From Patescibacteria group bacterium (GTDB lineage Bacteria > Patescibacteriota > Saccharimonadia > CAILAD01 > JADZBC01), in NCBI GenBank assembly GCA_052034495.1, contig JBPOIL010000010.1, positions 14,457 through 78,456 on the forward strand: a stretch of 64,000 nucleotides of DNA. Direction: 5' to 3'. The position numbers were made by a program, and so were the translations under genes. The notes under the pieces were generated by a model. It was not told the origin of the DNA. It ran no database searches and was given only the letters and a program-made list of their open reading frames with translations. This document shows positions 427 to 53,485 of the stretch, piece after piece. Position 1 is the first letter of the stretch; each line of letters starts with the position of its first letter.

Positions 427-1461
427 CTATTCCACCCTCGTGTCCTTATTGAACACAATGTCGCTCTTTGGCTCAGCTGTCGTACCGACCTTGCCTAAGT
501 CTTTTTTGGTAACCACTGTGTTGCTCAATATCAGCTGTGTGGAGCTACCATTGCTCGTTGATACCTTAATTGTTTCGTTTGCCCTAAAGATCTGCTCACT
601 ACCGGCGACCATAGTGGCACTAAATACGTCCTTGCCGTCCGCATTCACGCTAATGTTTGCCGTGTCAGGCCCAATACGCACGACCACCTCCACGCCACCA
701 GCAACGGCCGAAGTGCTGCCGATTACCTTTTCTTCATCCGGCAAGTCAGCGTTAATCGTCCTGACTATAGTCGTACTTTTATTAAGTCTGCTGCGGGCCG
801 TTACCTTCACCTGGTTCGGGCCATCTACTAGCGTTACCCTTTCACGGAACGACCCATCGGCACCAGTAGAGACCTCTGTATCATTTATAAATAGTTCTGC
901 CGTTTGGTCGGTCTTGCCCGTAACGTATACGATGCTCGATTTAACCGTAGAGTTTTCCTGATTGTTCACCGTGAGCACTGGTGGAGCCGAAAGCACACTC
1001 AACTGCCATACAATGTACGTCGTGATGAGCCCGATGAGCACAACGCCCATGAGGGCGAGCAAGCTCTTTGGCGTAACGACAAACTTAGGAGCTCCAAGTG
1101 GCTTAAGCCCTAGTGCGGGAGAATCGGCGTGCTTGCGGTCGGCGCCACGACGTTGAGATGAAGCCTGACGCTCTTTTTTGTACAGGCTCAGCAGTGGAGC
1201 TGTATCAAAGCCCAAGTAGTCTGCATAGTTTTTAACATAGCCACGGGTATAGATATCATCAGGCAACTTATCGTAAGCTCCTGCTTCTATTCGTTCAAGG
1301 TAGCTACTGCGGATTTTAGTCTCCTTCTCTGCCTGCTTAATGGTAATTTCAAGCTCTTCACGACGGCGCTCCAATAACTCACCCAACGAAAAATCAGCGA
1401 CTCGCTTGGGAGTCGGCTGACTCTTTGGTGCTTCTGCAATTGGCTTAGTCTTCGGAGTCAC
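427..1461 (-). CDS. HTH-domain membrane protein, RodZ-like (XRE-type HTH, one transmembrane segment, DUF4115-like C-terminal domain)
   Basis: N-terminal LGELLERRREELEITIKQAEKETKIRSSYLERIE is a RodZ-type HTH. A central hydrophobic helix is followed by a Ser/Thr-rich extracellular domain. Confidence 0.65.
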   Translation of the reverse strand: MTPKTKPIAEAPKSQPTPKRVADFSLGELLERRREELEITIKQAEKETKIRSSYLERIEAGAYDKLPDDIYTRGYVKNYADYLGFDTAPLLSLYKKERQASSQRRGADRKHADSPALGLKPLGAPKFVVTPKSLLALMGVVLIGLITTYIVWQLSVLSAPPVLTVNNQENSTVKSSIVYVTGKTDQTAELFINDTEVSTGADGSFRERVTLVDGPNQVKVTARSRLNKSTTIVRTINADLPDEEKVIGSTSAVAGGVEVVVRIGPDTANISVNADGKDVFSATMVAGSEQIFRANETIKVSTSNGSSTQLILSNTVVTKKDLGKVGTTAEPKSDIVFNKDTRVE

Positions 1462-3562
1462 TCAGGCCTCCCCCGCCGCCGAGTTCGTCAATGCTACTAA
1501 TTAGCACCTCTCGTGGTTTTGCACCATCCGGTGGCCCAACTACGCCCTGTTCCTCGAGCATATCCATGAGTCTCGCCGCGCGAGCGTAGCCGACCTTCAA
1601 ACGTCTCTGAAGGTAAGATGCCGAGGCCTTGCCGCCTTGAATAACGGCTTCTGCTGCGTCGTTAAACAAGTTGTCCTCGCCCGTGTCATAGTCTCCGCCG
1701 CCCACGCCCTTTATGCGCACAGACTGAGCCAATACCTCTTCATTATATTCAGGTTCGCGAGCACTACGTAGATAGTCAGCTACCCCCTTAACCTCTTCTT
1801 CACTCAACCACACACCCTGGACACGTTTTGGCTTAATGAAGCTTGGGCTGGCAAAGAGCATATCACCCTTACCAAGCAACTTCTCCGCACCGGCCATTTC
1901 GATAATAGTCCGTGAGTCCACTTGACTAGCAGTGGTAAGGGCCACGCGAGTCGGCACGTTCGCCTTAATAATACCTGTGATTACGTTCACACTTGGGCGC
2001 TGTGTAGCAAGTACCAAGTGAATACCGACGGCACGAGCCATCTGTGTAAGGCGCTGAATAAGTGCCTCTACATCTTTGCCGGCAACCATCATCAAATCAG
2101 CGAACTCGTCTACAACGATTACAATGTACGGCATGCTATCAACGTCCTTCTGTGCATTGAACTCATCAATGCCGCGTTTGCCATGATCCTGAAGCAACCT
2201 ATAGCGTCGATCCATCTCGGCCACTGCCCACTTGAGGGCCGATATTGCCTGCATAGGCTCGACAATAACCGGGGTAAGTAAGTGTGGAATGTCTTGGTAC
2301 AAGCCAAGCTCAACGCGCTTTGGATCAACCAAGATAAGCTTGAGTTCGGAGGGTGAATTGCGATACAGCAAACTCGTGATGAGGGTATTAATCATAACCG
2401 ACTTACCGGCACCAGTCGCACCAGCAACGAGTAAATGGGGCGCCTTGCCAAGGTCTGCCGTGATAATCTCGCCGCTCACATCCCTACCAAGCACAAAGGT
2501 TAACTTGGTGCCTTTGCCGCTCACCTCTTTTGAAGCAAGAATGTCACCCAGGCGCACGGTAGCTGCCTTTTTATTTGGTACCTGAATACCAACCAAGCTT
2601 TTTCCTGGAATTGGGGCCTCAATACGAATCTGCTCGGCTTCGAGGGCCAGCGCAAGGTTGCGGTCAAGTGCGGTAATCTTGTTTAGGTTCACTCCATTCG
2701 GCGGACGCAAGCTGTACTGGGAAACCGTCGGCCCGACGTCTACACCGTGCATGTCGACTTCGTAGCCGAAGTCGCCGAAGGTACTCTGAATAAGCTTGGC
2801 GGTGGCTTTGGCATCTCCGGGATCAGCTTGAGTGGAGGTTGCTTTGACTAAGTCTAAAGGAGGATAGACCCAGTCCTTGTCCACGCTTGTGAGCATCACA
2901 CTGGCCTTCTTCTTTGGCTCTGGCTCTTCTTCTCCTACCGAACCCTTTATAGGCAACGTGGTGTTAATCTTAAACTCACTTTGCTCCACAACTTCGCCTT
3001 CACTATTACGCTCGCGGTGGAAAAGAGCCAGGAAGCTTTTAAACAAATCCTTAACTCGAGTATTGGCAGCCACAACAAGACTAATCATGAGTAATGCGGT
3101 CAAGATAAAGATAGAAACTGGCTTGTTGAGTATTGGCAGCATAGCTGAGCTCAGGCCGAGCCCAACCATTCCGCCACCGCTGCCGACAGTGGCGAAGTCT
3201 ACGCCTTCTGGAGCAAAGATTAAATGAGCCAGACCCGCCAAGCAGACGAATACAAAGATCGTGCCGAAGAGGTTATTGGGCTTAAACTCGTATTTATCGG
3301 GCTGGAATAGAACCCAAGCAATAAGCAGGAGTGCGAATGGAAGCACAAAAGCCGCCAAGCCAATTACAAAGCTGACGGCCATAAATATCCATCCACCCAA
3401 GCTGCCGGCAAAGCCGATCATAGATAGAATTAAAAACACTGCGATGGTTATAAGCACAATAGCTGCTATCTCGCGCTTTGCTTCGCCCGAGATTTCCATG
3501 CGCGGCTCGCGCGGCAGCTTTGCCTTGTCCTTCTTCTTTACCTTGCGCTGCTTCTTAGCCAT
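1445..3562 (-). CDS. ftsK: DNA translocase FtsK/SpoIIIE
   Basis: Multi-pass N-terminal membrane region. Walker A GATGAGKSV within the FtsK motor domain, and a C-terminal gamma (winged-helix) domain LEEQGVVGPPDGAKPREVL. Confidence 0.9.
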   Translation of the reverse strand: MAKKQRKVKKKDKAKLPREPRMEISGEAKREIAAIVLITIAVFLILSMIGFAGSLGGWIFMAVSFVIGLAAFVLPFALLLIAWVLFQPDKYEFKPNNLFGTIFVFVCLAGLAHLIFAPEGVDFATVGSGGGMVGLGLSSAMLPILNKPVSIFILTALLMISLVVAANTRVKDLFKSFLALFHRERNSEGEVVEQSEFKINTTLPIKGSVGEEEPEPKKKASVMLTSVDKDWVYPPLDLVKATSTQADPGDAKATAKLIQSTFGDFGYEVDMHGVDVGPTVSQYSLRPPNGVNLNKITALDRNLALALEAEQIRIEAPIPGKSLVGIQVPNKKAATVRLGDILASKEVSGKGTKLTFVLGRDVSGEIITADLGKAPHLLVAGATGAGKSVMINTLITSLLYRNSPSELKLILVDPKRVELGLYQDIPHLLTPVIVEPMQAISALKWAVAEMDRRYRLLQDHGKRGIDEFNAQKDVDSMPYIVIVVDEFADLMMVAGKDVEALIQRLTQMARAVGIHLVLATQRPSVNVITGIIKANVPTRVALTTASQVDSRTIIEMAGAEKLLGKGDMLFASPSFIKPKRVQGVWLSEEEVKGVADYLRSAREPEYNEEVLAQSVRIKGVGGGDYDTGEDNLFNDAAEAVIQGGKASASYLQRRLKVGYARAARLMDMLEEQGVVGPPDGAKPREVLISSIDELGGGGGLSDSED

Positions 3563-3703
3563 TAGCTTATTATAGGCTCTCCTGGCGCACTGTGCTAGAT
3601 GATTTATGCATGATTCACCCTCATGTTAGTCTCCATTATAGCACAGCCGTACAATAATTACAAGACTTGTCAAATATAACCATTTTGCCTACCATTAGGT
3701 GGT

Positions 3704-5458
3704 ATGAAGAACTTATTTAAACTCTACAAATATCTCGATAACTATTTTTGGAAACTGCTGGGAGTAATCCTCGTCAGTACTCTTGTTGCCGTCATGCAAT
3801 CAGTTATGCCACTCGTGGTAAAACAAATCATAACTGTTATAGGTAACTCTGCGGGGAGCAAATCTCTTACTCCACAAATTATATTCTGGCTTGCCGTAAT
3901 CCTCGCCGCAGGCCTCATAGGTAATATCGCTATGTTTTTCCAAGATAAATATCAGAATGTCCTTGGCGTAGAAGTAGCACACAAAGTACGTAATAAAGTG
4001 TTCCGAATCACACTTAGCCTCACCCCTTCCCATGTTGAGCATGAGGGGGCTGGAAAGATCATTCAGCGAATTAACGAAGGTGTCAGCCAATTCAGAAACT
4101 GGATAGGTACCGCGAGCTATGTGTTATCTAATGTCATTTTCGTCATTATCGCGTTTATCGTGATTTTCTCAAAGAGTCCCCTTTCTGCATTAATATTCTG
4201 TATAGTTTTTGCACCTATTCAAATCTATGTAATCGCAAAGAAGCTACGCCTAACAAGGCCAATGTACAAAAAATGGCAAGAAGCAGGAAGTCGCTCTATG
4301 GGCCTCTTGTCAGAAACGTTGTCCAATCTTGCCATGGTGCGCTCACTCTCGGCAGAAGATGCACTCCAAAAAAAATATAATAGCTACAATGAAGAAGTAT
4401 TTGGCCTTCAACTAGAAACAAATGTACTAGAGAGACGCTACAATACAGCACGAGACATATTGGGCCAAAGCTATCAGTTTCTGGCGATCGCGATCGCAAC
4501 TATATCCGCAGTTTATGGCAAACTCTCTCCCGCGGATATTTTTGTGTTTGCGTACTTTGCGTCCAATCTAACGAACTCTCTCAATCCAATCGCAAGAATC
4601 GTTCAGACCACAACTGAAGCCGATGTTGCAGCTGGTCGTCTGATTGAATTCTTAGAAACAAAGCCCGCCATCATTGATAAGTCGGATGCGCTCCCCCTTG
4701 TACGGCTAGAAAGCATTGAGTTCAAGAATGTGAGCTTCACATACCCTGATAGTAAAAAGAACAAGGGGGCTATAAAAAACATTGGATTCAAAATCGAAGG
4801 AAATAAAACTTTAGCATTGGTGGGCCCTAGCGGCACAGGTAAATCTACAATCACTAAGCTATTGCTTCGCTTCTTTGAACCTACTGAAGGCCAGATACTG
4901 ATAAACGGTCAGAGCATTAGTACTTTTACACAAGACTCCATTCGACAACATATTGGCATGGTTATGCAAGACGTAGCGCTATTCAACACCACGATTGATG
5001 AGAATCTTGGAATGGCGAATGCTCGTGCCGACAAGGCTGCGATTGTACAAGCCGCTAAACAGGCACATGCCGACGAGTTCATCCAAGATTTGCCAAAGAA
5101 GTACAAAACCCTGGTTGGCGAACGTGGTGTAAAACTCTCTGGTGGCCAAAAGCAGCGTGTAGCGATTGCTCGAGCAATCCTAAAGGACCCACAGCTTATC
5201 ATCCTAGACGAAGCTACGAGCGCGCTAGACAGTGAATCTGAGCGCTTAGTACAAGATGGGCTTAAGAAGCTCATGACTGGCCGAAGCGCGCTCGTTATCG
5301 CCCACCGCTTAAGTACTATTATGCACGCTGATGAGATCCTGGTGCTCAAAAACGGGAAGGTTGCTGAACGAGGCACCCACAGCGAACTGATCAATCAAAC
5401 CGGCCTGTACAAGAAGCTCTTTAACCTCCAGTCCTCAAGCGGTAAAGTTAAGCTTTAA
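3704..5458 (+). CDS. ABC transporter, fused permease/ATP-binding protein (MsbA/exporter type)
   Basis: Six transmembrane helices, then Walker A GPSGTGKST, ABC signature LSGGQKQRVAIARA and Walker B ILDEATSALD. Confidence 0.85.
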   Translation: MKNLFKLYKYLDNYFWKLLGVILVSTLVAVMQSVMPLVVKQIITVIGNSAGSKSLTPQIIFWLAVILAAGLIGNIAMFFQDKYQNVLGVEVAHKVRNKVFRITLSLTPSHVEHEGAGKIIQRINEGVSQFRNWIGTASYVLSNVIFVIIAFIVIFSKSPLSALIFCIVFAPIQIYVIAKKLRLTRPMYKKWQEAGSRSMGLLSETLSNLAMVRSLSAEDALQKKYNSYNEEVFGLQLETNVLERRYNTARDILGQSYQFLAIAIATISAVYGKLSPADIFVFAYFASNLTNSLNPIARIVQTTTEADVAAGRLIEFLETKPAIIDKSDALPLVRLESIEFKNVSFTYPDSKKNKGAIKNIGFKIEGNKTLALVGPSGTGKSTITKLLLRFFEPTEGQILINGQSISTFTQDSIRQHIGMVMQDVALFNTTIDENLGMANARADKAAIVQAAKQAHADEFIQDLPKKYKTLVGERGVKLSGGQKQRVAIARAILKDPQLIILDEATSALDSESERLVQDGLKKLMTGRSALVIAHRLSTIMHADEILVLKNGKVAERGTHSELINQTGLYKKLFNLQSSSGKVKL

Positions 5459-5642
5459 CCACGGCGGCAGATCCCTCGTCCGCCAGCTGGCGGATCGGAA
5501 AGACGAATCCGCATATACTAAAAGGCAGCCAGGAAATGTGGCAGCCTTTTATATTCCTCCTAAAACCTTGAGGGTGCTCAAGAGCTTGGGAAGAACAAGG
5601 ACATAGGAGTGGGCTGTGCGGGGGCCCGAAGGCCCCCGCGGG

Positions 5643-5963
5643 TCAGCTGTTGACGATCTTCTTGTGCCGGCGTACATGGCCGCGAGGGGTCTTCCCCAAC
5701 TCATCCTCGTAGCGGCTGCCGCCCGCCCCGACGCCCAACAAGATGTAGATGAGCCAATGGCCCCTGTTGCAGAAGCCCTTGGCTTCGTCGTCGTAGGAGA
5801 ACAAGCAGCTCTTGGTGACGCCGCACTGCGCGCACGTCCCCGAGCCTTCCTTCTCACGCAAGACAGTGCCAGCCTTCTTGTCCGACGTAACCTGGACTCG
5901 GACTGGCTGATCCACTTTCGCCACAATGACCTCCTGGGTCGTATAGATGAATGGGGGCGACAC
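5643..5963 (-). CDS. Small hypothetical protein in a high-GC islet. The likely true start is an internal GTG near 5900 that follows an AGGAGG ribosome-binding site.
   Basis: The ORF lies inside a short high-GC patch. A minus-strand TTGACA-N17-TATAGAAT promoter sits at ~6060-6105. A GC hairpin gcgggggcc-cgaa-ggcccccgc at 5620-5641 follows the stop. No recognizable domain; contains a CxxC pair. Confidence 0.35.
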   Translation of the reverse strand: MSPPFIYTTQEVIVAKVDQPVRVQVTSDKKAGTVLREKEGSGTCAQCGVTKSCLFSYDDEAKGFCNRGHWLIYILLGVGAGGSRYEDELGKTPRGHVRRHKKIVNS

Positions 5964-6110
5964 TGATCCTTAGTCGAAACAAGGTCCAGTAGAGTGCGCT
6001 CTCGTGAGAAGAACGCACATTACCGGACCCTGCTTTCCTATATCCTTGTAATGTACCTTAGCTAGGCTAAAGTTTTACTATTCTATAGTATTTTTACCTT
6101 TTTGTCAATA

Positions 6111-11495: not shown

Positions 11496-12143
11496 CTAAT
11501 CAAGGTGTACGGCGTCATCTAAATTATACTCCCCAACCCTGGTACGCGTGAGCGCACTCATGTAGGCACCTGTGCCCAGGGCCGCACCAATGTCCTCCAC
11601 GAGGCTACGAATGTACGTGCCGCTCGATACGTCAGCTCGAAAATGCAGTTTGGGGTAGCTATAATTCAGCAACTCAATGTGCGCGATGGTGACCTTGCGG
11701 GGCTCTATGGTTACTTCTTTGCCCGCTCGAGCCAACTTATACGCTCGCTGACCGCCTACCTTGATCGCCGAATATACTGGTGGCGTCTGCATAATCTCTC
11801 CCTGGAACTTGAGTAACGCTTGCCTGACATCGTCCTCGTCTGGTTGCTTATCAGACACCCGGGCTAGCTCGCCTTCGCGGTCCCCTGTTGTAGAGGTCTG
11901 GCCAAGCTTAGCCTCCACCTCGTAGGTCTTATCGAGCTTTAGGAAGCTATCTGCCTTACGGGTGTAGTCTTTGCCAACCAGAATGATCATCAATCCTTCG
12001 GCCTCAGGATCAAGCGTGCCTGCATGACCGACCTTTCGAATGCCAGTTATGCGTCGTACGCGCGCCACAACGCCAAACGAACTAATGCCCGTCGGCTTGT
12101 GAACCAACCACATACCCTCACCTGTAATTTCTGCATTTGCCAT
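11496..12143 (-). CDS. truB: tRNA pseudouridine(55) synthase TruB
   Basis: GHAGTLDPEAEGL catalytic motif. Conserved truB-rpsO-pnp gene order. Confidence 0.9.
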   Translation of the reverse strand: MANAEITGEGMWLVHKPTGISSFGVVARVRRITGIRKVGHAGTLDPEAEGLMIILVGKDYTRKADSFLKLDKTYEVEAKLGQTSTTGDREGELARVSDKQPDEDDVRQALLKFQGEIMQTPPVYSAIKVGGQRAYKLARAGKEVTIEPRKVTIAHIELLNYSYPKLHFRADVSSGTYIRSLVEDIGAALGTGAYMSALTRTRVGEYNLDDAVHLD

Positions 12144-12157
12144 AACTACAGTATAGC

Positions 12158-13273: not shown

Positions 13274-13387
13274 GAGAATCCTTTGAGATTCACTATAATA
13301 GCAATTTTTGAGTGATTTGTCAATACTAGCACAAGCTTTTTACAGGTATACAGGTCTGTGGCCCGGGGACGAATCCCCGGGCCACGG

Positions 13388-13666
13388 TCACAACTTCTTT
13401 ACAACGCGCTCGGCAATCGGGCCCAATGCCCAGAAGATCGCACAGCTGGCGAGAAGCCAAACTGCGGTGGGATGGAACCCGGCGAGGAGAATGGCGGGGA
13501 TCGTGCCCGCAATCAGGCTCGTCAGCAACCGCCCGACCAGAATCAAACGCTTCTGCGCGCCCTGGTCTGGCCAACTGGGATCCTCCTTCCCAGATTCGCC
13601 GCTCCAGCCTGGAATTTGGCTTTCGTTCACGTCACGCTCCTTTGTAGCGTAGAGTTGTGCTTTCAA
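13388..13666 (-). CDS. Small membrane protein (two predicted transmembrane helices) in a high-GC islet
   Basis: High-GC ORF. A GC hairpin gcccgggga-cgaat-tccccgggc (13358-13383) follows the stop. Possible GTG start preceded by AAAGGAG. Confidence 0.35.
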   Translation of the reverse strand: MKAQLYATKERDVNESQIPGWSGESGKEDPSWPDQGAQKRLILVGRLLTSLIAGTIPAILLAGFHPTAVWLLASCAIFWALGPIAERVVKKL

Positions 13667-14114
13667 AGTCCCTTGCGAACCTGCGCGAATTTTACGCCTA
13701 GATGGTCAGAATAACAAGCCGCCATGCCATAAGCTCATTGACTTTTAGCCTCAACTTTGCTAGTATTTATAGCCCTGTCCGCTTTATGCAAGTTCAAAAG
13801 GATGTACAAACGTGCATTGCACGCATAGCCCATGTAAACTCACCTGCCCAGCGGTTCAGTCCGTCCTGGAATGGATCAAGCACATGCTCGACATGTTCGG
13901 GAACATCATGCTCAGTGGCGTAGAAACCCTGTGCGAAGACCTTCACCGACTCCCCCTCTGCACCCGCTAAGGGGCCAAGTCGCAAAGCGGATGGCGGTGT
14001 TCGAGGCCTCGCGGCCTCGGATGCCCATCCCAGCTATTATCCCACTCTCTTTACAGGAGAGCCCAGTTACGCTATAATAAGCGCTGTTTTAATTGATTCT
14101 AAGAAAGAGACTAC

Positions 14115-15523: not shown

Positions 15524-16006
15524 TCAGGTATAGAGTTTGGCAATCTTCTCAATGATCTGGGTTGTCGACACCTCTTCACTAAAACGAGGAATTGCCACGA
15601 GCTGAGTGCCCTGAGCATTAAGCCACTCTTCGTCTTCGAACCAGGCCGGATGCTCTTGACCAAAGACAAAAAAGTCAGGTTTTAGATCTTTAAGCAGTTT
15701 GTGCCCACGAATGGCAAGGTTCGGGGTGTGGCTCGGGGCAATAAATACATAGTCAACGCCGCCTAGTCCGTCCACAATAGCCGCCCGCTGTTCTTGAGGA
15801 ATTATTGGTCGCTTTTCCCCCTTCCTAGCTCTTGCCCTGTCATCCGGGGTAATGCCAATAACTACAATTTCCCCCTGTGACTTCAAGTGTTTTACTAGGT
15901 CGAGGTGGCCGATATGAAAGAGGTCAAATACACCGCCCGAATATGCGATAGTCTGGCCTTCGTGCTTCTTGCGGATATCTGGAAGGTCTTCTAGCGGTAT
16001 GATCAT
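15524..16006 (-). CDS. Cytidylyltransferase-like nucleotidyltransferase (glycerol-3-phosphate cytidylyltransferase / RfaE domain-II type)
   Basis: HIGH-type nucleotidyltransferase motif GGVFDLFHIGHLDLV. Length 160 aa. Confidence 0.75.
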   Translation of the reverse strand: MIIPLEDLPDIRKKHEGQTIAYSGGVFDLFHIGHLDLVKHLKSQGEIVVIGITPDDRARARKGEKRPIIPQEQRAAIVDGLGGVDYVFIAPSHTPNLAIRGHKLLKDLKPDFFVFGQEHPAWFEDEEWLNAQGTQLVAIPRFSEEVSTTQIIEKIAKLYT

Positions 16007-16030
16007 GTGACCATTCTACACTGTACTGGG

Positions 16031-16096
16031 AAATAAAAAAGGACCCTGCCGGCCGGCTCGCCTCCCGAAGGGTTTGAGCCAGCCAACCGAGTCGTC
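16031..16096 (-). repeat. Copy A of a ~65-bp conserved palindromic repeat (terminator-like or attC-like)
   Basis: gaAATAAAAAAGGACCCtGCcGGCCGGCTC-gcctcccgaagggttt-GAGCCaGCCAaCCGAGTCGTCA. Lies immediately 3' of the minus-strand ORF 16095..16487. The stem is imperfect. Confidence 0.7.
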
Positions 16097-16487
16097 AGTG
16101 GCACATGCGAGCATGACGCCTGGCCTCCTTGCGCGAGAAGCCATGCTCCATGTAATACTTGCGCGAGTCTCGCCGACGCCGCGAGCGCTCGAAGTCCTTG
16201 TGGACACCCGGCAAGAGACGCTCCGCCCCCATCTCACTGGAATAGTTCTGGCAAAAGTTAGCCAGGCACCTCAGAGGACTCTTCAGCCTTATGAGCACCA
16301 GTAGCAGTATGAGCACGGTGGCCGCACCACGCCACAACAAGACCAGCTTGAGCACGAACCACAACAGGCCGACGAAGACCAGAAGAGGGCCCATGCTCCA
16401 AGTCACCAAGCTGGCAAGCAAGCAGAAGCCTGCGAGCAAGATGGTAACGAACCCCAACTGCTGCCTCGTCATGGGATCTTGCGGCAA
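16095..16487 (-). CDS. Hypothetical membrane protein: three predicted transmembrane helices and an Arg-rich C-terminal tail. High GC.
   Basis: TTG or internal ATG start (MTRQQLGFVTILLAGF...). Three hydrophobic helices, then ERSRRRRDSRKYYMEHGFSRKEARRHARMCH. Confidence 0.4.
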   Translation of the reverse strand: MPQDPMTRQQLGFVTILLAGFCLLASLVTWSMGPLLVFVGLLWFVLKLVLLWRGAATVLILLLVLIRLKSPLRCLANFCQNYSSEMGAERLLPGVHKDFERSRRRRDSRKYYMEHGFSRKEARRHARMCH

Positions 16488-16631
16488 CCACCAGCGGATT
16501 GCCGCGCGGGCATGCTGACGGACGGTCAGCGACGTATCGAGGTCAGTGGTGATCTCGGTGGTATTTCCTCCTTATGAGGTACGGGTGGACACACAAAGTA
16601 TGCTACTACGCATGGATAATTTCAACCCCTT

Positions 16632-16699
16632 GAAATAAAAAGGACCCCGCTGGCCGGCTCGCCTCCCGAAGGATTTGAGCCGGCCAGCCGAGTCGTCAC
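16632..16699 (-). repeat. Copy B of the ~65-bp palindromic repeat (perfect 12-bp stem)
   Basis: GAAATAAAAAGGACCCC-GCTGGCCGGCTC-gcctcccgaaggattt-GAGCCGGCCAGC-CGAGTCGTCA. On the minus strand it reads as hairpin, then GGGGTCC, then TTTTTATTTC. Confidence 0.75.
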
Positions 16700-16947
16700 G
16701 CGCGAAGTTCGAGCTCCCTCTCGGTTCCATCAGCCGCCCGAACAATGATGACACCCCCCTCCAGGGCACCACACTCGACGAGCCATCCAAGCGTCTGGAG
16801 GGAAGACCTCAAGACCCAACTTGTATTCACGCCGAATCTGTCTTTGAGTCCTTCGAGGATGGCTTTCTCCTCGCGATTGACCCTGACCTGCAAGGTTTCC
16901 TCGCGGGACTGTGTACTGGACAAACTGAGCACCTGACGATCTGCCAC
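16696..16947 (-). CDS. Ribbon-helix-helix-like small protein, paralog A (~83 aa). It is the 3' part of the annotated 228-aa ORF.
   Basis: A GTG start is preceded by AAGGAGG plus 8 nt. Sequence ADRQVLSLSSTQSREETLQVRVNREEKAILEGL...VIIVRAADGTERELELRA is homologous to ORF 17620..17868. The upstream 140 codons of the table ORF are compositionally non-coding. Confidence 0.5.
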   Translation of the reverse strand: MADRQVLSLSSTQSREETLQVRVNREEKAILEGLKDRFGVNTSWVLRSSLQTLGWLVECGALEGGVIIVRAADGTERELELRA

Positions 16948-17491
16948 AACAACTACCTCCTTATTGGGTGCGGTGAAAACCGCTAGTATGGGGCTTTCTA
17001 ACCTAGACTTCAAGTCCAAAAACGAAAGAAGCCCCAGCCGGCCCCGCCCTTCCACCCGCCGAAGCGTGGTGGTTGGTACGGGACCGGCCGAAGCCGACGT
17101 GCGGTTGGCATGGCATGCATACTTCCCCGCGGGATGTCGCTGTCGCTGTGAGCTGAAGGCTGTGAGCCGACTGCCGATGGCGATGCGCAGGCTCCTGTGA
17201 CCCTGGGCAGGGGGCCGTAGACACACTCGAGCGCTCGAGTCAGGAGCTTTGCCTGCTCCAACCGTACCTCTAGTTCCCAGCTCTCGCCAAGGAGATTCGG
17301 CCTGCCTACGTATCAACCTACGTGGTGATCCGTGGATCTTTCCACTCCACCGTTCTGCGCAAGGCATCGGGTTTGGGGTCAATTCTCGTCTTTCCGAGCC
17401 GGCAACGGTCTCTCCCGTTCGTTTTTTAGATAGAAGGGGTTACGATCCCCACGTGATGGCGTCCGGCTTTTTGTTTTGCGGGACAAAAAAT

Positions 17492-17519
17492 ATTATACCA
17501 AACTTACCCAATGTGTCAA
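17492..17519 (-). promoter_or_regulatory. Consensus sigma-70 promoter (TTGACA-N16-TATAAT) reading toward RHH paralog A
   Basis: The minus strand reads TTGACAcattgggtaagtttggTATAAT, immediately downstream of repeat copy C. A ~500-nt high-GC leader follows. Confidence 0.6.
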
Positions 17520-17527
17520 TAGGGCGA

Positions 17528-17593
17528 GAATAAAAAGGACCCCGCTGGCCGGCTCGCCTCCCGGAGGATTTGAGCCAGCCAGCCGAGTCGCCA
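17528..17593 (-). repeat. Copy C of the ~65-bp palindromic repeat
   Basis: GAGAATAAAAAGGACCCC-GCTGGCCGGCTC-gcctcccggaggattt-GAGCCaGCCAGC-CGAGTCGCCA. Lies immediately 3' of ORF 17620..17868. Confidence 0.75.
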
Positions 17594-17619
17594 ACGGCTG
17601 CAAGCACCGCAAGAGAACG

Positions 17620-17868
17620 CTACAGCAAGACATGAACGCGTTCAGTCGAACCATCTGCCCTACGGATAAATAGCTCACCGCCCTTGTCTTTCACCTCCTC
17701 CAGGTACCATAGGTACATCTTCATCGCATCATTGGTCAAGGCGGCAAGAGATCTTTCCATATCTGTCGACCGCTCTCTCAGCCTGGTGGCCGTAGCCGGA
17801 TTGAGACTCAGTGACATCTTCACAGCCGGCACCGCATCAGTCCTGGGCATTGCGCACCTACCTTGCAT
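17620..17868 (-). CDS. Ribbon-helix-helix-like small protein, paralog B
   Basis: ...KMSLSLNPATATRLRERSTDMERSLAALTNDAMKMYLWYLEE...FIRRADGSTERVHVLL shows the beta-strand/helix/helix pattern of CopG/Arc-type folds. The C-terminal RADG(S)TER motif is shared with paralog A. An upstream promoter TTGAAA-N17-TATAGT lies at ~17880-17915. Confidence 0.5.
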   Translation of the reverse strand: MQGRCAMPRTDAVPAVKMSLSLNPATATRLRERSTDMERSLAALTNDAMKMYLWYLEEVKDKGGELFIRRADGSTERVHVLL

Positions 17869-17923
17869 TAGGGATTACGGATGATTACGATACTATAACA
17901 CTATAGTTAATACTTTTCAATAG

Positions 17924-27460: not shown

Positions 27461-28993
27461 TTATTTCCAGGACCAAGTACTTTCTAAGGTAGAAACAGCT
27501 GCTTTTGTGAACTCATCACTGCTCGTCATGTTGATTTCAAAAGACGTAATCTTCTCGCCATCAAGCTTGTATTTGCTGTCTTTGAGCACTACCACAATCA
27601 TTGTCTTGTTTTGCGGTACTTCGGTAGTGCCAGCGTTAAACACAACCTCCGTTGCATCAAAGCCACCTAGCGTAATTTGTCGCTCGGAAACAGTATTGGC
27701 TGCCGTTATCTTGTTGGCCTCTTTGGAGGCGACCACTGCCTTTTCTAGATCTTCGTACGCGGTAATAGAAGGCAGCACTGCGATAGTACTTACCCCCTGA
27801 GCACCGAAGGTGGCGTCTAACTTACACGACGTGTCGTCCGTAGGAACTGTATTGTCTGTGGGTAGTCCAAACTCATAACATTCCTTAACGATAGCCGTGT
27901 AGCCCTCTGGGACGGTAATCGTTGGCTCGGTAGATACGCTCTGGCTCTGCTCTTGGTCTCCTGAAAGCGAATCAGCTGGAACCTCGGTAGTTGGCTTACG
28001 GCCTAGAATGAGGGCCAACACAATAATTCCAAAGATCAGGACAGCGGCGCCGATACCGACTGCCATAAATATACCTTTACCGCCTTTTGCTTTACCGCTA
28101 GAGCTGCTCGCGGCGGCCATGAGCGCAGGGTCCGAGTATGGGTCGACTCCAGCTGCTGGATTAGCCGCAGGGTCATCTAGCATGGATTGTAATGTTGGGT
28201 CAGTCCCTGCCATAGCAGGATCAACTGGAGCGGCTACGCCTGGAGCCATACCTGCACCGGCCGCTGGGTCAACAAACTGCTGTCCAAACGCCGGTTCGGG
28301 TGCGGCTGGCGCAGGCTCGGGCATAGTGGGGGCAACAGGCATAGGTCCGGGTCCCATTGGGACCACCATAGGCGCTGGCTCCGGCATTGGGGCTGGTGCT
28401 GCCACTGGAGCAGCCGCTATTGGTTGTTCTGGCAGGAAGGGTGCTGGTGGCGCTGTCGCAGCGTCCATCTCGAGTGGGTTGGGCGGTAATGGCTCAGGAG
28501 CTGAGGGGTAAGAACTAGCTGGAGCGCCCACACCTACATCCTGCGAAGGGTCGTAGGCTTGAGTCGGCATTGGAGCAGGTGCTATTGGCGCTGGCTCCGG
28601 AGCAATTGGCTGGGGCGCAACCGAGACAGTATCTATTGGCGCGGCGACTGCGGGCATAACGGGCGCGACAGGTGCAGCGGCAACCGCAGGGTCAGTAAAG
28701 CCGGCCATAGGGTTTGGCTCTGGGTCTGCTATATGCGCCTCTACTGCGGCTGCAGCAGGATCTGCTGGCGCCACAACCGGCATTGGAGCTGCCACGGGGG
28801 CTGGAGCTACTGAGTCCACCATAGGCGCGCTATTGAGCTGAGCATTTACAGCATCCTGGAGCGGCGAACCAGTACTGGGTGCAGCAGCAGCACCTGGGGC
28901 GTAGGTAGGGGGAATTTGCGCGTTTAAATCAGCCCCAGGTTGCGAGGCTGCGCTCTGATCATTCAGTGGTGATTGTGGATCTTGTGGCGTCAT
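27461..28993 (-). CDS. Pro/Ala-rich membrane-anchored protein with a globular C-terminal extracellular domain
   Basis: ~280 aa of PA-rich low complexity, then one transmembrane helix (IFMAVGIGAAVLIFGIIVLALIL), then a ~180-aa domain. Confidence 0.6.
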   Translation of the reverse strand: MTPQDPQSPLNDQSAASQPGADLNAQIPPTYAPGAAAAPSTGSPLQDAVNAQLNSAPMVDSVAPAPVAAPMPVVAPADPAAAAVEAHIADPEPNPMAGFTDPAVAAAPVAPVMPAVAAPIDTVSVAPQPIAPEPAPIAPAPMPTQAYDPSQDVGVGAPASSYPSAPEPLPPNPLEMDAATAPPAPFLPEQPIAAAPVAAPAPMPEPAPMVVPMGPGPMPVAPTMPEPAPAAPEPAFGQQFVDPAAGAGMAPGVAAPVDPAMAGTDPTLQSMLDDPAANPAAGVDPYSDPALMAAASSSSGKAKGGKGIFMAVGIGAAVLIFGIIVLALILGRKPTTEVPADSLSGDQEQSQSVSTEPTITVPEGYTAIVKECYEFGLPTDNTVPTDDTSCKLDATFGAQGVSTIAVLPSITAYEDLEKAVVASKEANKITAANTVSERQITLGGFDATEVVFNAGTTEVPQNKTMIVVVLKDSKYKLDGEKITSFEINMTSSDEFTKAAVSTLESTWSWK

Positions 28994-40578: not shown

Positions 40579-40797
40579 GCTAAATAAAAGCAGCCTAGCA
40601 AAGCTAGACTGGATAAGTGCTGATAGTGCTTCGAGCTCGCGGGGAGGATCTCCCTCCCCGCCGCTCAAGTACTGCATGAACCGTGCTTCAGCTGATGCTG
40701 CTTTGCCGAAGCCACTCCTCCTGAGAGGATGCGTGCAACAGGGAGTACCCTACTGCAACGACGACTGCCGCGATCAACCCGATCGCCGCCCAGCGCT

Positions 40798-41229
40798 TCA
40801 TCCCAGCCTGCCGAAAGCTTCGAGCCCAGCGGTGTCGGCTGCGGCCGGGGTGGACCAACTCTTTGGCCTGGCCAGGCCACCCTGCTTTGCCGACCTGGCT
40901 GTACAGCGCTTGCCCTCCAGCCTCTTCTGGGCGGCACCCTTGGCGTCGCTGTAGATCTTGATGAGGAGGAAGTCGAAGAGGACCACCACCCCAGCAAGCA
41001 GCTTCGGGTAACGCCTGGCGAGACGCAACACCGGGCCGGCCGTGACGGCCAGAACACCAGAGAAGGCGCCGATGCCAACCCAGACGATCTTGCTGGGGTT
41101 GTCTTCGGTGTAGACCCTCCCGTGGGCAGCGGCCTCCCGCTTTGCCGACGCATCGCCGAACTTGGCGAAGAGCCAGAACAGGGTGGCCCCCACCAAGCCA
41201 CCCACTACCAATTGCTGAGACTTCCGCAT
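40798..41229 (-). CDS. Hypothetical membrane protein (three transmembrane helices) in a high-GC islet
   Basis: High-GC ORF. Overlapping alternative frames look non-protein. A GC hairpin gcggggagg-atct-ccctccccgc at 40640-40661 lies downstream. Confidence 0.4.
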   Translation of the reverse strand: MRKSQQLVVGGLVGATLFWLFAKFGDASAKREAAAHGRVYTEDNPSKIVWVGIGAFSGVLAVTAGPVLRLARRYPKLLAGVVVLFDFLLIKIYSDAKGAAQKRLEGKRCTARSAKQGGLARPKSWSTPAAADTAGLEAFGRLG

Positions 41230-41312
41230 GTTTCCCCCTAGGGTCTAGACGATTGCGGTAGCAACATTGTGCCCTAAATAGACCTGGTTTTCAAGCATAA
41301 GGATGCTTTAAC

Positions 41313-43640: not shown

Positions 43641-44036
43641 GATAAAACTTCTTAATTACCCTTTAATTGTCCTCCTGCCCTTGGTATCTTGTCAATAGTA
43701 TGGTCTAGCTATGCTTCTGTCGTGGTGTTGTAACAATGTAGATAAGCGCCACGAAGGCCAATAGTACAAGAATAGTACAAACAATACTGAGTGGCGTTTG
43801 GTCCGGCCAGAACGCAAGGTATAGGGCGGACAGAGCAGCTGCGGCGCCATAAAGATACTGACGAGCGGCAACGTTGCAATTCCTTTTGGCATGCTGAGCG
43901 CCGGCACAGTGCTCTTGGCACGAAACCTAGGCCTGTTTGCATCTAACTCTTCCGCCACTGGAATCCTCTTGCTCCTTATCGGGCTTGGCATTTTGGTAAT
44001 TGCCGTATCCCCCAAGGGCAAACCACAAGACTAGAC

Positions 44037-44510: not shown

Positions 44511-45281
44511 TTATGGGCGCAACGTACCAAAGAACACTTGCCAGGCGAGTGCTGATTTGGCAACTAGGCTAAGAATTATATACACGCGCTCACCATACAG
44601 GTAGTCCTTCCATTTTCCAACTTGCTTGTACTGCAGGAACATATTGATCGCAAAGATGTTAAAGAAGGCAAAGATCGAAACGTAAATCCAGTAAACAAAA
44701 GCGGGGATGTTGCCACTGCCGTAGGTGTTGCTCGCCCAGAATGAAGTAGCAACGATTATCCATGGAACTATGCCGGCAATACAACCAACGACGAAACTAA
44801 CCCACTTAGTCTTTTCTGTAGTCTGATTGTGAATCTCCATCACCAAGCCCATCAGATTCATGACCGCGACAAGCGCAAATATACCGATTAAAAGCGAGAG
44901 GTCGTATATGCCGACCAGGAGCGAAATAGCCACCATCATGGTGCTAGCAGATAACGAGTATTCGATCCAGCGAGCTCGGTTGATACCTTTGCCAAGGTCC
45001 TTGTTATAACGCTTATTGTAAACCGTAGCGATTATCAGGTGCGCCAATGATGACATTACCAGGAACGCAACCACGAGGTATGCTAGCGGGACATCAAAGA
45101 GGGTCTTTGTAGCAGACTCTAAGTTTTGAGTCTGCCGGTTGAAAGATAGGAAGCTCGTGGTAACAGGCAGTAAAAACTCTTTGCTCAAGAGCAAGATAGC
45201 CAAGGCCTGGACCGCGTGCAACGCAGCCATTTTAAAGTTAAATGATCTCAGCCCTGCTTTCGTAATCTTTTTTCGAGCCAC
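44511..45281 (-). CDS. Heliorhodopsin
   Basis: Seven transmembrane helices. Strong similarity to heliorhodopsin 48C12 in RWIEYSLSASTM, VGCIAGIVPW and YLYGERVYIILSLVAKSALAWQVFFGTL. The retinal Schiff-base Lys in LVAKSA is present. Confidence 0.85.
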   Translation of the reverse strand: MARKKITKAGLRSFNFKMAALHAVQALAILLLSKEFLLPVTTSFLSFNRQTQNLESATKTLFDVPLAYLVVAFLVMSSLAHLIIATVYNKRYNKDLGKGINRARWIEYSLSASTMMVAISLLVGIYDLSLLIGIFALVAVMNLMGLVMEIHNQTTEKTKWVSFVVGCIAGIVPWIIVATSFWASNTYGSGNIPAFVYWIYVSIFAFFNIFAINMFLQYKQVGKWKDYLYGERVYIILSLVAKSALAWQVFFGTLRP

Positions 45282-45776
45282 TTCGTAATCTCCTTATTTA
45301 GGATGATTATAGCATAACGCCTATGCTAGCGGTTGCACGTAGTGTTCTATACCATACTGTTAGGCCGGCCATGAAAGGAGTCGAGTTGCCGAATAGGATA
45401 GCCAAGCGGCACCTGGTGCCAACTCACGACAGTCCGCGAACGTGGTGTCAAATGGGATCAGGCCACGTTCACACAACTGAAAGCCCATCTGGGGCAACAT
45501 GCAACGGGTGTCTCAAGGCGTATTGGAGGACGGTAGTACCAGATCCAGCTGTCATTACAGACCTGCTGCTAGCACTCCACCCCAACAACTCAGACCCCAT
45601 GACCTCGTGCCAGCGTGTGCTCTACCAAGTACTAACTGGTCACAAGCTCCCAAATGCCTGAACTCACATCGACGTGGGTTCAGGCATTTCCCTTTATCTA
45701 CTTTTTTGTTTCAGTTTATCGCAGTGTTTCCTTGTAAATTACCTATTTAACAGATTGTATTTAGTGCCAATAAGCA

Positions 45777-45805
45777 TTGACAAAATACTAAATTTGTGCT
45801 AATAT
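45777..45805 (+). promoter_or_regulatory. Consensus sigma-70 promoter TTGACA-N17-TAATAT for the high-GC operon
   Basis: TTGACA at 45777-45782, a 17-nt spacer, TAATAT at 45800-45805. AAGGAG lies 7 nt before the TTG start at 45873. Confidence 0.65.
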
Positions 45806-45872
45806 TCTTGGGTTACCTGGCTTCGAACCAGGAGCACATCACATCCAAGAAGCATACCAAGGAGAAGGTGCC

Positions 45873-46502
45873 TTGCAGGCAACCGACCAGTCCACATCCA
45901 CCTCGCGAGCACTCGTGCTCGCCGACAAGATCCTGCCGGCCATCATGGACCCGGCGCAGTTCCCGCAGATCGCGGGCGGCAAGTCCCAGACCGACAAGAT
46001 CAACCTCGCGCGCGACGTGGCCGACATCGTCGTTCGTCGCAACGCCGACGAGAGCCAGGACGAGGGCTTCGCCCTCACCCTGGTGACCACCATGGACGAG
46101 TTCCCCAAGAAGGCTTCCAAGGCTGCCGTCAGCCTGCTGCTCGACACGGGGATGAGCTCGATGGAGGTGCACGGGGCGATGAAGTTCGCCACGGAGCTGG
46201 ACGTCAGCCTGGACTTCGCCATCACGTGGATGAAGTACTGGGACGTCACCCTGTCCGACGAGGACGAGGTGTCAGCCTGTGCGGACTCCACCATCGAGCT
46301 GCTCAACGCGCAGCCGCGCGGCGTCGGGATCAACGCCCAGGGCAAGCTCCAGGGCGGGACCCGTCCGCGGAACCCGCACTCGGTCCCCGACCCGGGGCAG
46401 AGCCAGGACCGCGAGCAGATCCTGCTCACGGCCCGCCAGCTCGGCGAAGACCTCAACAAGAGGACCCTCGACGAGCTGGTCGACCACTTCGGTGGCTCCT
46501 GA
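45873..46502 (+). CDS. Hypothetical protein (high GC), first gene of a two-gene operon
   Basis: TTG start with a good ribosome-binding site. 209 aa, no recognizable domain. Its stop overlaps the next start (TGATG). Confidence 0.5.
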   Translation: MQATDQSTSTSRALVLADKILPAIMDPAQFPQIAGGKSQTDKINLARDVADIVVRRNADESQDEGFALTLVTTMDEFPKKASKAAVSLLLDTGMSSMEVHGAMKFATELDVSLDFAITWMKYWDVTLSDEDEVSACADSTIELLNAQPRGVGINAQGKLQGGTRPRNPHSVPDPGQSQDREQILLTARQLGEDLNKRTLDELVDHFGGS

Positions 46503-47431: not shown

Positions 47432-47463
47432 GCTGAGCTCTCATGCTTCCTGGGATGTGATTC

Positions 47464-47541
47464 CCGGGGACGCCCCTAAAAAGGCGTCCCCGGTTTCCCA
47501 AGCAATTATCTAAAAACCACCTCAAACACGAGGTGGTTTTT
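47464..47541. terminator. Tandem hairpins ending the high-GC operon
   Basis: A GC hairpin ccggggacgcc-cctaaaaag-ggcgtccccgg (47464-47493) is followed by the bidirectional terminator aaaaaccacctc-aaacac-gaggtggttttt (47512-47541). Confidence 0.75.
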
Positions 47542-51364: not shown

Positions 51365-51550
51365 CCCGAATAGGAGAAGGCCCAGAGTCGAAACCCTGGG
51401 CCTTATTCACCCTCCTTCGATGCAGGTCTATGACCCGCTCAGATAGCCGTCGCTCGGCTAGCACACTATTCCCTTGTGCTAGGGTCGCTGCCATTATGTT
51501 GCCTGGCTGCAGCGAGGTGATTCTTCCGAATCTACCACGGGCCAAAGCCC

Positions 51551-53462: not shown

Positions 53463-53485
53463 AAAAAACGCCCTTAAGGGCGCTT
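53463..53485 (-). terminator. Intrinsic terminator on the minus strand
   Basis: The minus strand reads aagcgccctt-aagggcgttttttg. Confidence 0.55.

Follow-up and report, generated by a model that had tools for sequence, protein, structure and literature searches.

Why does a bacterial chromosome of nearly balanced base composition contain short, sharply bounded patches of much higher GC content? This question is raised by a stretch of 64,000 nucleotides (GenBank assembly GCA_052034495.1, contig JBPOIL010000010.1, positions 14,457 to 78,456), referred to here in its whole length as the window, which has a GC content of 51.4% and carries a series of such patches, designated islets I1 to I8. A near-identical contig is labelled as an uncultured Candidatus Saccharibacteria metagenome-assembled genome (MAG), in agreement with an earlier suggestion, made from the letters of the window, that the organism may be an episymbiont. 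Saccharibacteria are obligate epibionts of Actinobacteria. The same earlier reading (hereafter the original prediction) explained the islets by recurrent acquisition of small genes from a high-GC donor, possibly the actinobacterial host, or by a family of GC-rich mobile cassettes. The results presented below led us to a different explanation, to which we give even chances of being right: the islets would be native, lineage-specific accessory transcription units in which selection maintains a GC-rich, over-folded RNA, and not decaying imports.

Composition and anatomy of the islets

Sliding windows resolved strong patches with a GC fraction of 0.58-0.675 and sharp edges at 5523-5977, 15985-17705, 40590-41281, 45804-47524, 51365-53221, 53439-53858, 57269-58125 and 62418-64000, and a weaker one (0.54-0.59) at 13325-13665; the patches are 0.4-1.9 kb in size. 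The predicted discrete high-GC patches on a backbone of ~50% GC are thereby borne out, and GC at third codon positions (GC3) is not uniform either: it amounts to 0.61-0.93 in the islets (13 open reading frames (ORFs), most of them at 0.78-0.93) against 0.45-0.60, with a median of 0.55, in 27 backbone genes (Mann-Whitney p=7e-8, calculated on an earlier, slightly different set of values). The GC signal of the islets resides at silent sites. A further GC-rich patch that was missing from the original prediction (28028-28973, GC 0.60-0.63) is unrelated in kind. It lies inside an ORF on the minus strand (27461-28993) encoding 510 amino acids (aa) without a Pfam domain, has a GC3 of 0.47, and derives its GC from an Ala/Pro/Gly-rich low-complexity protein stretch, that is, from amino-acid composition and not from silent sites. 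It was also considered that the islets might be conventional RNA genes of high GC (rRNA, RNase P, tmRNA). Searches with Rfam at the gathering threshold and with ARAGORN returned only a tRNA-Ser, and Rfam scans at permissive settings, covering the entire window and two sub-regions, added nothing except hammerheads.

Each islet is predicted to be a self-contained transcription unit composed of an AT-rich promoter, a GC-rich body and GC hairpins (Table 1). The AT-rich promoters proposed earlier were recovered as sigma-70-like sites in AT-rich DNA just upstream of each unit, scoring 9-12 out of 12 (10-12 in six of ten, including one perfect 12). The islet ORFs are preceded by AGGAG-type ribosome-binding sites, and the 3' ends of the units are perfect GC stems, often UUCG-capped, frequently with a second hairpin and a U-run after them. 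All six hairpins quoted in the original prediction were found: those of I1, I2, I4, I5 and I7 at their positions in Table 1, and one at 14003-14018. Purifying selection, with dN/dS of 0.12 for I8 and 0.16 for I5b, supports these as real genes.

As regards the content of the units, the earlier claim that every islet holds a small ORF stands for many of them, but 52483-53305, 53462-53848 and 17015-17485 show no coding periodicity and are non-coding; nor are all the genes small, as exemplified by I5 (209 and 309 aa) and I8 (578 aa). A membrane or secreted location, also claimed, is supported by hydrophobic segments or lipoboxes for I2, I3a, I4a/b, I6, I7a and I8, but not for I1, I3b, I3c, I5a or I5b. 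The expected lack of recognizable domains proved correct, since no significant family was found for any islet protein in Pfam, PHROGs, NCBIfam or PADLOC. Some sub-threshold matches may nevertheless be mentioned. I3b reaches 14.9 bits with RHH_1 (PF01402; ribbon-helix-helix (RHH), CopG), below the cut-off of 20.5, and this match serves as a lead only. I5b contains an HPD motif (LHHPDTGGD) and matches PF00226 weakly (E=0.021; 15.3 bits, cut-off 27.8) and TIGR02349 with 16 bits against a cut-off of 377. I7a scores 18.2 bits with LysM (PF01476; cut-off 20.9), only the C-terminal half of the profile being matched. The I6 lipoprotein is a paralogue of I7a (E=1.6e-9) and has a dN/dS of 0.65 relative to L007, a closely related strain.

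Persistence of composition and RNA folding

Whether the composition of an islet is a passing trace of import or is kept over time may be read from the relatives of I8. This protein finds its best matches in 19 proteins encoded by Saccharibacteria-like contigs, the longest of which measures 936 kb. In 8 of 11 relatives' loci the gene precedes groES/groEL, and in five of these PGM can be seen farther upstream; in three relatives (L004, L095 and L096) the I8 gene is found elsewhere. Best hits within the same lineage and at the same locus, which the original prediction had named as speaking against its own explanation, are thus what was observed for I8. In all 11 loci I8 is a GC island, with a GC3 of 0.64-0.83 against mostly 0.3-0.65 for the backbone (locus medians 0.39-0.62), and the relatives carry other GC3-rich families as well (261, 166, 80 and 140 aa), which are syntenic orthologues of one another. 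GroEL is ~81% identical between these genomes at the protein level, and its fourfold degenerate sites are saturated (0.29-0.38 identical, 0.27 expected); across these GroEL-saturated lineages I8 and the 261-aa family keep a GC content at fourfold sites of 0.62-0.89. Neutral amelioration would have erased the GC signal past saturation, which argues that the composition is being held. Polarised third-position substitutions point in the same direction, giving an equilibrium GC3 of 0.74-0.79 for I8 and, by the same method in the same genomes, 0.43-0.58 for GroEL, GroES, SIS and PGM. Under the model of Lawrence and Ochman, atypical islands derived from horizontal transfer are said to ameliorate. 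For the families that could be traced (I8 and the other GC-rich families), repeated recent acquisition is contradicted by these sequence comparisons.

The folding of the transcripts was evaluated in 300-nt windows of coding sequences against dinucleotide shuffles and against synonymous-codon shuffles, the latter keeping both the protein and its codon usage. The islet coding sequences of the window gave z of -1.86 with dinucleotide shuffles and -1.61 with synonymous-codon shuffles (10 of 12 negative), and the relatives' GC3-rich genes gave -2.62 (18 of 18 negative) and -2.11 (17 of 18 negative), respectively. The corresponding values were +0.28 and -0.29 for the backbone genes of the window, and -0.20 and -0.30 for Micrococcales genes of the same GC3; the relatives' backbone genes had a dinucleotide z of -0.21. 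With synonymous-codon shuffles, the comparison of the islets with the actinobacterial genes gives p=4e-5, and that with the backbone p=9e-5. Such an excess over synonymous-codon shuffles indicates that silent sites are arranged for more base-pairing. The folding excess is common to coding and non-coding islets and absent in real actinobacterial genes; it links the two kinds of islets and would thereby explain the persistence of their composition.

Several observations weigh against units maintained by selection. The codon usage of the islets correlates with that of Micrococcales megaplasmid genes at r=0.97 and with that of the backbone at r=0.69, and their amino-acid composition (Arg enriched; Lys, Ile and Asn reduced) also closely matches Actinobacteria, so that a foreign origin of many islets stays plausible. 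Parsimony polarisation is error-prone at 14-20% divergence. The newest I8 differences, between the window and the 98% identical L006, lean from GC to AT (7-11 against 3-5), which fits decay; young polymorphisms are AT-biased in most bacteria. In L094 the GC3 of I8 is down to 0.68, hence maintenance is not uniform, and the folding excess is modest or absent in I3b, I3c, I7a and I2. Finally, the many-genome comparison covers the I8 region only, I1-I7 having been compared in the close L007 and the distant L013.

An actinobacterial link is most evident for I8. Homologues are located on megaplasmids of Curtobacterium and Pseudarthrobacter, with ~25% identity over 74-83% of the query in tblastn, and an I8 profile of 19 members detects the megaplasmid proteins at E=1e-32 and 1e-22. 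The profile aligns 370 columns (positions 202-571) with the Curtobacterium protein, and both N-termini are hydrophobic. Judging from these profile matches, I8 and genes of high-GC Actinobacteria, probably the phylum of the host, descend from a common ancestor; an actinobacterial origin of the other families is possible. The two megaplasmids, pS16 of Curtobacterium (L008) and pACHL01 of Pseudarthrobacter chlorophenolicus (L009), are dense in hypothetical genes and also encode RtcB, RNA ligase, DNA ligase, SecY and SecG, an unusual content for plasmids.

Recent and repeated import of small genes from the high-GC actinobacterial host by a naturally competent symbiont, which would express them from local promoters, with the GC representing un-ameliorated donor composition, would account for the codon usage, the actinobacterium-like amino-acid shift, the megaplasmid homologues and the GC-to-AT lean of recent I8 substitutions; the hairpins without U-runs likewise resemble actinobacterial terminators. 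It also fits the absence of I1-I7 homologues from the relatives' loci examined, and of I1-I3 from the corresponding junctions of L013, a distant syntenic locus (PNPase 54% identical) that was the one syntenic locus among at least 80 distant loci in a metagenome scan with PNPase alignment. In L013, Fpg adjoins holA and S20 adjoins the DHH gene, no ORF above a GC3 of 0.5 occurs in the locus, I2 and I3 are absent, and the site of I1 holds an unrelated gene. However, I8 and the other GC-rich families are syntenic and still GC-rich past silent-site saturation, their implied equilibrium GC3 is high, the actinobacterial homologues are distant, the excess of folding seen in islets is not shared by actinobacterial genes, and at least two islets (the I6 RNA and I6b) as well as the I3 leader are non-coding. 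Moreover, twelve other islet proteins, searched as a concatenate, had no match in PLSDB plasmids or INPHARED phages, and I1 had none among 5.8 billion proteins. We therefore consider such import unlikely. The predicted recurrent acquisition from a high-GC donor retains the codon usage and the I8 homologues in its favour and is opposed by persistence, equilibrium GC3 and folding; its expectation that islets would be absent from relatives agrees with I1-I3 in L013 and with I6b, which does not align in L007, but not with I8, syntenic in eight loci. A scan of genome contigs with PmbA yielded only the near-identical MAG, and an exact look-up of ribosomal protein S20 only the same strain.

Exchange of islets among the lineages themselves is another possibility. 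Between the lineage of the window and L093, I8 with its untranslated region (UTR) has an identity of 84%, compared with 73% for groESL and 65% for SIS, and third-position identity is 0.73 for I8 and 0.30-0.49 for the flanking backbone. L094 is the closer relative of the window when backbone genes are compared, and L093 when I8 is. The I5 sequence matches that of L007 at 91-100% identity and its flanks do so at 65-82%; indeed, the whole comparison with L007 is a mosaic of 65-100% identical blocks, which implies frequent recombination between strains. These sequence patterns suggest that islets are exchanged among lineages by recombination. Some backbone blocks are near-identical to L007 too (PmbA, 99-100%), and since the PmbA block was also exchanged, the recombination is not islet-specific. 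Part of the low silent divergence of I8 may, in addition, be due to RNA-structure constraint and not to transfer. The L007 contig further carries a 2971-bp insertion (831-3793) corresponding to window position ~43864-43871, which encodes two membrane proteins of 374 and 179 aa with ordinary GC3.

The islets could alternatively be cargo or remnants of a GC-rich family of mobile elements or phages that circulates in Saccharibacteria and keeps the composition of its vehicle. The identity contrasts of I8 and I5 with their flanks agree with this, as do the 65-nt terminator found thrice behind unrelated genes, the different islet content of relatives, and the multiple hammerheads flanking genes, a prophage arrangement (PMC3088659). 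Nevertheless, genes for an integrase, a transposase, a capsid or any other phage function are absent from the 64-kb window, the islets are not bordered by direct repeats, and no tRNA target was found. The islet proteins have no PHROG or phage match (I5b, for instance, gave none in tblastn against INPHARED phages), and IMG/VR contains neither an I8 relative nor an exact match to three DNA motifs (hammerhead, non-coding RNA block and 65-nt terminator). The promoters look native, eight relatives' loci share one syntenic position of I8, the mosaic with L007 includes backbone blocks such as PmbA, and RNA-structure constraint alone could lower I8 divergence. This explanation is, in our view, quite unlikely, and the mobile cassette family of the original prediction found no support in the search for mobility genes and flanking repeats.

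With recombination this frequent, the silent sites might also be driven to G/C by GC-biased gene conversion at recombination hot spots of a naturally transformable organism and not by selection on RNA. The mosaic strain identity, the incongruence of I8 with its flanks and the equilibrium GC3 raised specifically in I8 are compatible with conversion. Known effects of this process in bacteria, however, amount to a few percent of GC3 and not to 30-40 points, recombined backbone blocks such as PmbA are not GC-rich, and conversion predicts neither a folding excess over synonymous-codon shuffles nor the coincidence of GC-rich borders with transcript bodies. We regard it as highly improbable. Least credible of all, to the point of being negligible, is a chimeric assembly of reads of a high-GC organism into a Saccharibacteria contig. 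Some short-read contigs do end at or within islets (L007 near I6b, L097 within I3), but the same junctions are found again in assemblies made independently (Logan SRR34217545, the third-party annotation MAG CAYTBW01, and JGI/ENA/NCBI contigs of 135-936 kb), and promoters, operon overlaps and terminators join the flanks seamlessly.

Ribozymes, non-coding RNAs and other features

Two elements of the window, HHR-1 in I6 and HHR-2 in the 3' UTR of I8, are identified by sequence and pairing as type III hammerhead ribozymes (HHRs). The exact core CUGAUGA ... GAAA is present in both window copies and in L006, L007 (two), L093, L094 and L095, and the cleavage triplet NUH is satisfied by GUC in HHR-1 and CUC in HHR-2. 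Both score below the RF00008 gathering threshold of 48.5 bits (43.5 and 35.6 bits) because their loops 1 and 2 are short; for HHR-1, E is 1.4e-7 in a regional and 3.5e-6 in a window-wide scan. When seven hammerhead sequences were aligned, pairing was seen in every one of the 119 pair cells (100%, against 26-49% in slid controls), and both partners have changed in 14 of 18 pairs; none of 500 shuffles equalled this result. A caveat is that three of the loci were partly found by a pairing descriptor, which has no bearing on the changes seen inside orthologous sets. Three helices enclose the core, stem III being open and containing the 5' and 3' ends, and columns 8-79 (the A15.1-U16.1 pair test) are invariantly U-A. 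The descriptor gave 8 matches in 274 kb of Saccharibacteria loci and 0 in 992 kb of other metagenome loci. From these features we infer that the hammerheads would cleave in vivo. A literature search on hammerheads or GC3 heterogeneity in Saccharibacteria and the candidate phyla radiation (CPR) found nothing relevant.

HHR-1 terminates the ~820-nt RNA of I6, and its L007 orthologue has a compensatory change from A-U to G-C in stem II. The degenerate hammerhead further along I6 corresponds in L007 to a canonical type III hammerhead (11847-11898, descriptor scan) situated between HHR-1 and the lipoprotein gene. HHR-2 directly follows a UUCG hairpin (~62433-62451) and is conserved in L093, L094 and L095, with compensatory changes in stems II and III and an expanded stem II in L094. 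In L004, a hammerhead-like element after the I8 homologue (12100-12151) reads GAA-U for GAAA (a U15.1-A16.1 swap), and it may be inactive or a variant. L095 contains a second copy of part of the hairpin region of the I8 3' UTR (2604-2665), upstream of its I8 gene. Next to the I8 transcript, groES is preceded by a CIRCE-type inverted repeat (61880-61906, minus strand; TTAGCACTC-N9-GAGTGCTAA) with a TTGACG promoter; the repeat is conserved in L093, L094 and L010. Between the I8 hammerhead and the groES promoter the window has ~430 extra bases relative to L093.

The ~820-nt RNA can be compared with its counterpart in strain L007 (79% identity, with indels that are not in threes): stems are conserved and loops variable, and 221 consensus pairs include 17 compensatory and 0 broken ones. 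The 52-aa ORF of I6 sits in the ~450-nt stretch between the two I6 hammerhead sites, whose predicted cleavage sites are ~500 nt apart. In I6b, a ~380-nt non-coding RNA (53462-53848, minus strand) with a minimum free energy (MFE) z of -7.4, no Rfam match and no high-GC3 ORF occupies the stretch from a consensus promoter to a terminator. The I3 leader folds weakly better than shuffles (z=-1.95). None of the three non-coding stretches matched any of 4227 Rfam families at permissive thresholds (E up to 1-5). A candidate small RNA was also noticed outside the window, in a 145-nt block found in L006 (4620-4735, ~2.5 kb past the right end of the window), L094 (2152-2296) and L011 (~11890-11980). The block is 96% identical across lineages, with flanks at 71-80%, contains GCUAUAGGUAUCGAAA, and comprises a consensus promoter and, behind it, an ~85-nt RNA with a terminator at its end; the Rfam scan of L006 gave no match to it.

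Table 1 Predicted features of the islets. Positions refer to the window; strand is given as + or -.
Feature	Position	Strand	Description
I1 promoter	6080-6108	-	TTGACA-17-TAGAAT, 11/12
I1 gene	5643-5924	-	93 aa, GC3 0.83; AGGAGG 5 nt before GTG start
I1 3' hairpin	5618-5639	-	GCGGGGGCC-UUCG-GGCCCCCGC
I1 second hairpin	~5567-5585	-	With U-run
I2 promoter-like site	13689-13717	-	
I2 gene	13388-13627	-	79 aa, two hydrophobic segments, GC3 0.71
I2 hairpin	13358-13385	-	UUCG-type
I3c gene	17620-17868	-	82 aa, weak I3b paralogue; promoter 17892-17920
I3 leader	17015-17485	-	GC-rich, non-coding, ~470 nt; after perfect 12/12 promoter 17492-17519
I3b gene	16696-16953	-	85 aa, ribbon-helix-helix-like
I3a gene	16095-16487	-	130 aa, three hydrophobic segments, GC3 0.78; promoter-like site 16597-16625
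65-nt terminator-like repeat, three copies	16033-16097, 16634-16698, 17529-17593	-	Each closes one I3 unit
I4 two-gene operon	40688-41229	-	ATGA overlap; promoter-like site 41266-41294
I4 membrane protein gene	40798-41229	-	143 aa, GC3 0.80
I4 single-pass peptide gene	40688-40801	-	37 aa
I4 hairpin	40639-40661	-	
I4 terminator	40591-40611	-	
I5 unit	45777-47493	+	Promoter 45777-45805; hairpin 47464-47493
I5a gene	45873-46502	+	209 aa, GC3 0.93
I5b gene	46502-47431	+	309 aa, J-domain-like, GC3 0.80; dN/dS 0.16 vs L007
I6 promoter	53313-53341	-	TTGACA-17-TAATAT
I6 structured non-coding RNA	52483-53305	-	~820 nt, MFE z=-6.4, no Rfam family
HHR-1	52428-52482	-	Type III hammerhead; Rfam RF00008, 43.5 bits
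I6 52-aa ORF	52166-52324	-	Acidic, GC3 0.66, 98% identical in L007; coding status uncertain
I6 degenerate hammerhead	51926-51977	-	Core CCGAUGA (U4 to C)
I6 lipoprotein gene	51551-51868	-	105 aa, lipobox LAGC, GC3 0.89; hairpin 51380-51403
I6b unit	53462-53884	-	Promoter 53856-53884 (TTGACA-17-TATTAT); terminator 53466-53485
I7 unit	57272-58124	+	Promoter 57272-57300; terminator 58108-58124
I7a lipoprotein gene	57370-57678	+	102 aa, lipobox LSSC, GC3 0.90; then hairpin 57701-57725
I7b gene	57808-58050	+	80 aa
I8 gene	62521-64000	-	578 aa in full length, runs off the window end, 3' 486 codons inside; GC3 0.82
HHR-2	62378-62431	-	Type III hammerhead, I8 3' UTR; RF00008, 35.6 bits, E=6e-4 window-wide
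GC-rich RNA tail downstream of HHR-2	62230-62377	-	Then terminator-like hairpin, then CIRCE-controlled groES promoter

I1 was placed by the original prediction at 5549-5966. The GC-rich patch and an ORF are indeed there, but the real coding frame is that of the minus strand (Table 1) and not 5616-5966 on the plus strand, an antisense ORF of 116 aa which is also what public gene calls at this locus carry. The I1 protein is Cys-rich (CxxC...C...C..H), has a short hydrophobic stretch and matches no family. Its minus-strand ORF is absent from a 15-billion-protein collection, in which only the antisense ORF of the locus is present; eleven other islet proteins do occur in the large collection. Gene callers trained on the backbone choose the antisense frame at I1, and the true protein is consequently missing from the large collection. 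As this happens in at least one islet, small GC-rich genes in such genomes may be systematically miscalled, which should serve as a practical warning.

I3 consists of three tandem units encoding the weakly RHH-like pair of 82 and 85 aa and the 130-aa membrane protein. Its 65-nt repeat is formed by a long GC stem, an inner UUCG hairpin and a subsequent U-run, and its copies are 89-95% identical. The I8 protein is composed of N-terminal helices, a beta-rich domain and a C-terminal helix; its AlphaFold2 model has a mean predicted local distance difference test (pLDDT) score of 59, and Foldseek against the PDB returned nothing at E<=0.001 for it. Not far from I2, a TG-extended promoter-like site (13738-13766) is followed by a ~240-nt stretch without a convincing ORF (13770-14050, plus strand), which ends at the hairpin GAGGCC-UCGC-GGCCUC upstream of the S20 gene's own promoter and is possibly a small RNA or a leader.

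The backbone encodes housekeeping functions: FtsK, RNase J, PNPase, TruB, S20, the delta subunit of DNA polymerase III, Fpg, PolA, RpoD, DnaG, a MurE-like ligase, TldD/PmbA and GroES/EL, along with a heliorhodopsin and others. The heliorhodopsin gene (44511-45281, minus strand) is assigned by Pfam with E=9e-99 in this Saccharibacteria genome. Two very long perfect hairpins stand at gene ends outside the islets, with 17 pairs at 54978-55017 and 16 pairs at 45652-45689 (both on the plus strand). A TPR-like gene (59217-59846, plus strand) has a GC3 of 0.50 in the window, 0.66 in L010 and 0.69 in L012; the GC3 of one orthologue can therefore vary by lineage.

Interpretation and comparison with known systems

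If the islets are native accessory units, their operation may be outlined as follows. Each unit would begin at a strong native sigma-70 promoter and continue into a GC-rich body, either coding (for lipoproteins, small membrane proteins, or proteins of RHH-like or J-like type) or made up of a structured non-coding RNA. Its end would be formed by GC hairpins of great stability, many of them capped by UUCG and some followed by a U-run. Cleavage by the hammerheads would divide the I6 transcript into three parts, namely the ~820-nt RNA, the lipoprotein mRNA and, between them, a piece of ~500 nt containing the 52-aa ORF. The hammerhead of I8 would shorten the 3' UTR of this gene and so uncouple its transcript from the downstream groES-groEL operon. 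The GC content would be held over long evolutionary time, most likely by selection for dense RNA base-pairing. This pairing probably serves stability against RNases, which would then be the selected trait.

A bolder reading, which we find doubtful, is that some Saccharibacteria possess 'armoured' transcripts, that is, strongly promoted, hyper-structured mRNAs and non-coding RNAs that are processed by hammerheads, have silent sites selected for structure and share host-like codon usage. In the boldest form, such RNAs or small surface proteins might be made for the host interface, perhaps with unusually long-lived or exported RNAs acting in the host or on it. Were this true, the ~820-nt and ~380-nt RNAs would represent new families of large functional RNAs.

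Most lineage-specific genes of Saccharibacteria are unexplained, and here one class of accessory units in one clade can be recognised from sequence alone by its consensus promoter and its over-folded body of high GC3. A GC island is usually read as a recent import undergoing amelioration, and this reading fails here, because the composition is kept long after silent-site saturation. The units offer tests of gene-specific selection on RNA stability or structure in an ultra-small bacterium that has RNase J and PNPase, and they raise the questions of what role hammerheads have in a bacterial chromosome outside prophages and what function the two large structured RNAs without a family fulfil.

Among known systems, integron cassettes resemble the islets as small units of a single gene whose closing 3' element is structured and conserved in part; in the three I3 units this element is the 65-nt repeat. 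The islet units differ in having a promoter each and in being scattered among housekeeping genes instead of arrayed at an attI site. No IntI was found in the window, and reading the 65-nt repeat by eye, with no pattern search run, revealed no attC core sites (GTTRRRY/RYYYAAC); integron cassettes were accordingly rejected. With transferred genomic islands the islets share the form of discrete blocks, a foreign-looking GC3 and codon usage, one family with homologues in a high-GC phylum, and a content that varies between relatives. They differ in that the units are tiny (0.4-1.9 kb), carry no mobility genes and are partly non-coding, that their composition persists past saturation with a raised equilibrium GC3, and that the RNAs show selected folding.

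At the level of RNA, U-tract-less ('I-shaped') intrinsic terminators occur in high-GC Actinobacteria. The perfect GC stems with tetraloops right after the stop codon, often lacking a U-run (I1, I2, I4 and I8), are similar to these, although in the islets a second hairpin with a U-run usually stands behind; the stems may act as terminators or may protect the 3' ends. The ~820-nt and ~380-nt RNAs are comparable to the large structured RNAs GOLLD, ROOL, OLE, HEARO and raiA in being long, GC-rich for their genome and highly structured, with conserved stems and variable loops. Unlike those, they have no Rfam match and are known so far only from the window strain and one close relative, and the ~820-nt RNA ends at a hammerhead cleavage site.

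The closest parallel to the ribozymes is found in bacterial prophage regions, where multiple hammerheads flanking genes were described (Perreault et al. 2011, PMC3088659). As in those regions, canonical cores lie between cistrons of one transcript, the flanked genes are hypothetical and variable, and the two sites of I6, ~500 nt apart and both intact in L007, would yield gene-length pieces. The hammerheads described here differ in that they are of type III, score under the Rfam gathering cut-off and reside in a chromosome of Saccharibacteria (CPR) with no integrase or phage genes nearby, where one follows a ~820-nt structured non-coding RNA and the other is part of the 3' UTR of a chromosomal gene that is conserved and precedes groESL.

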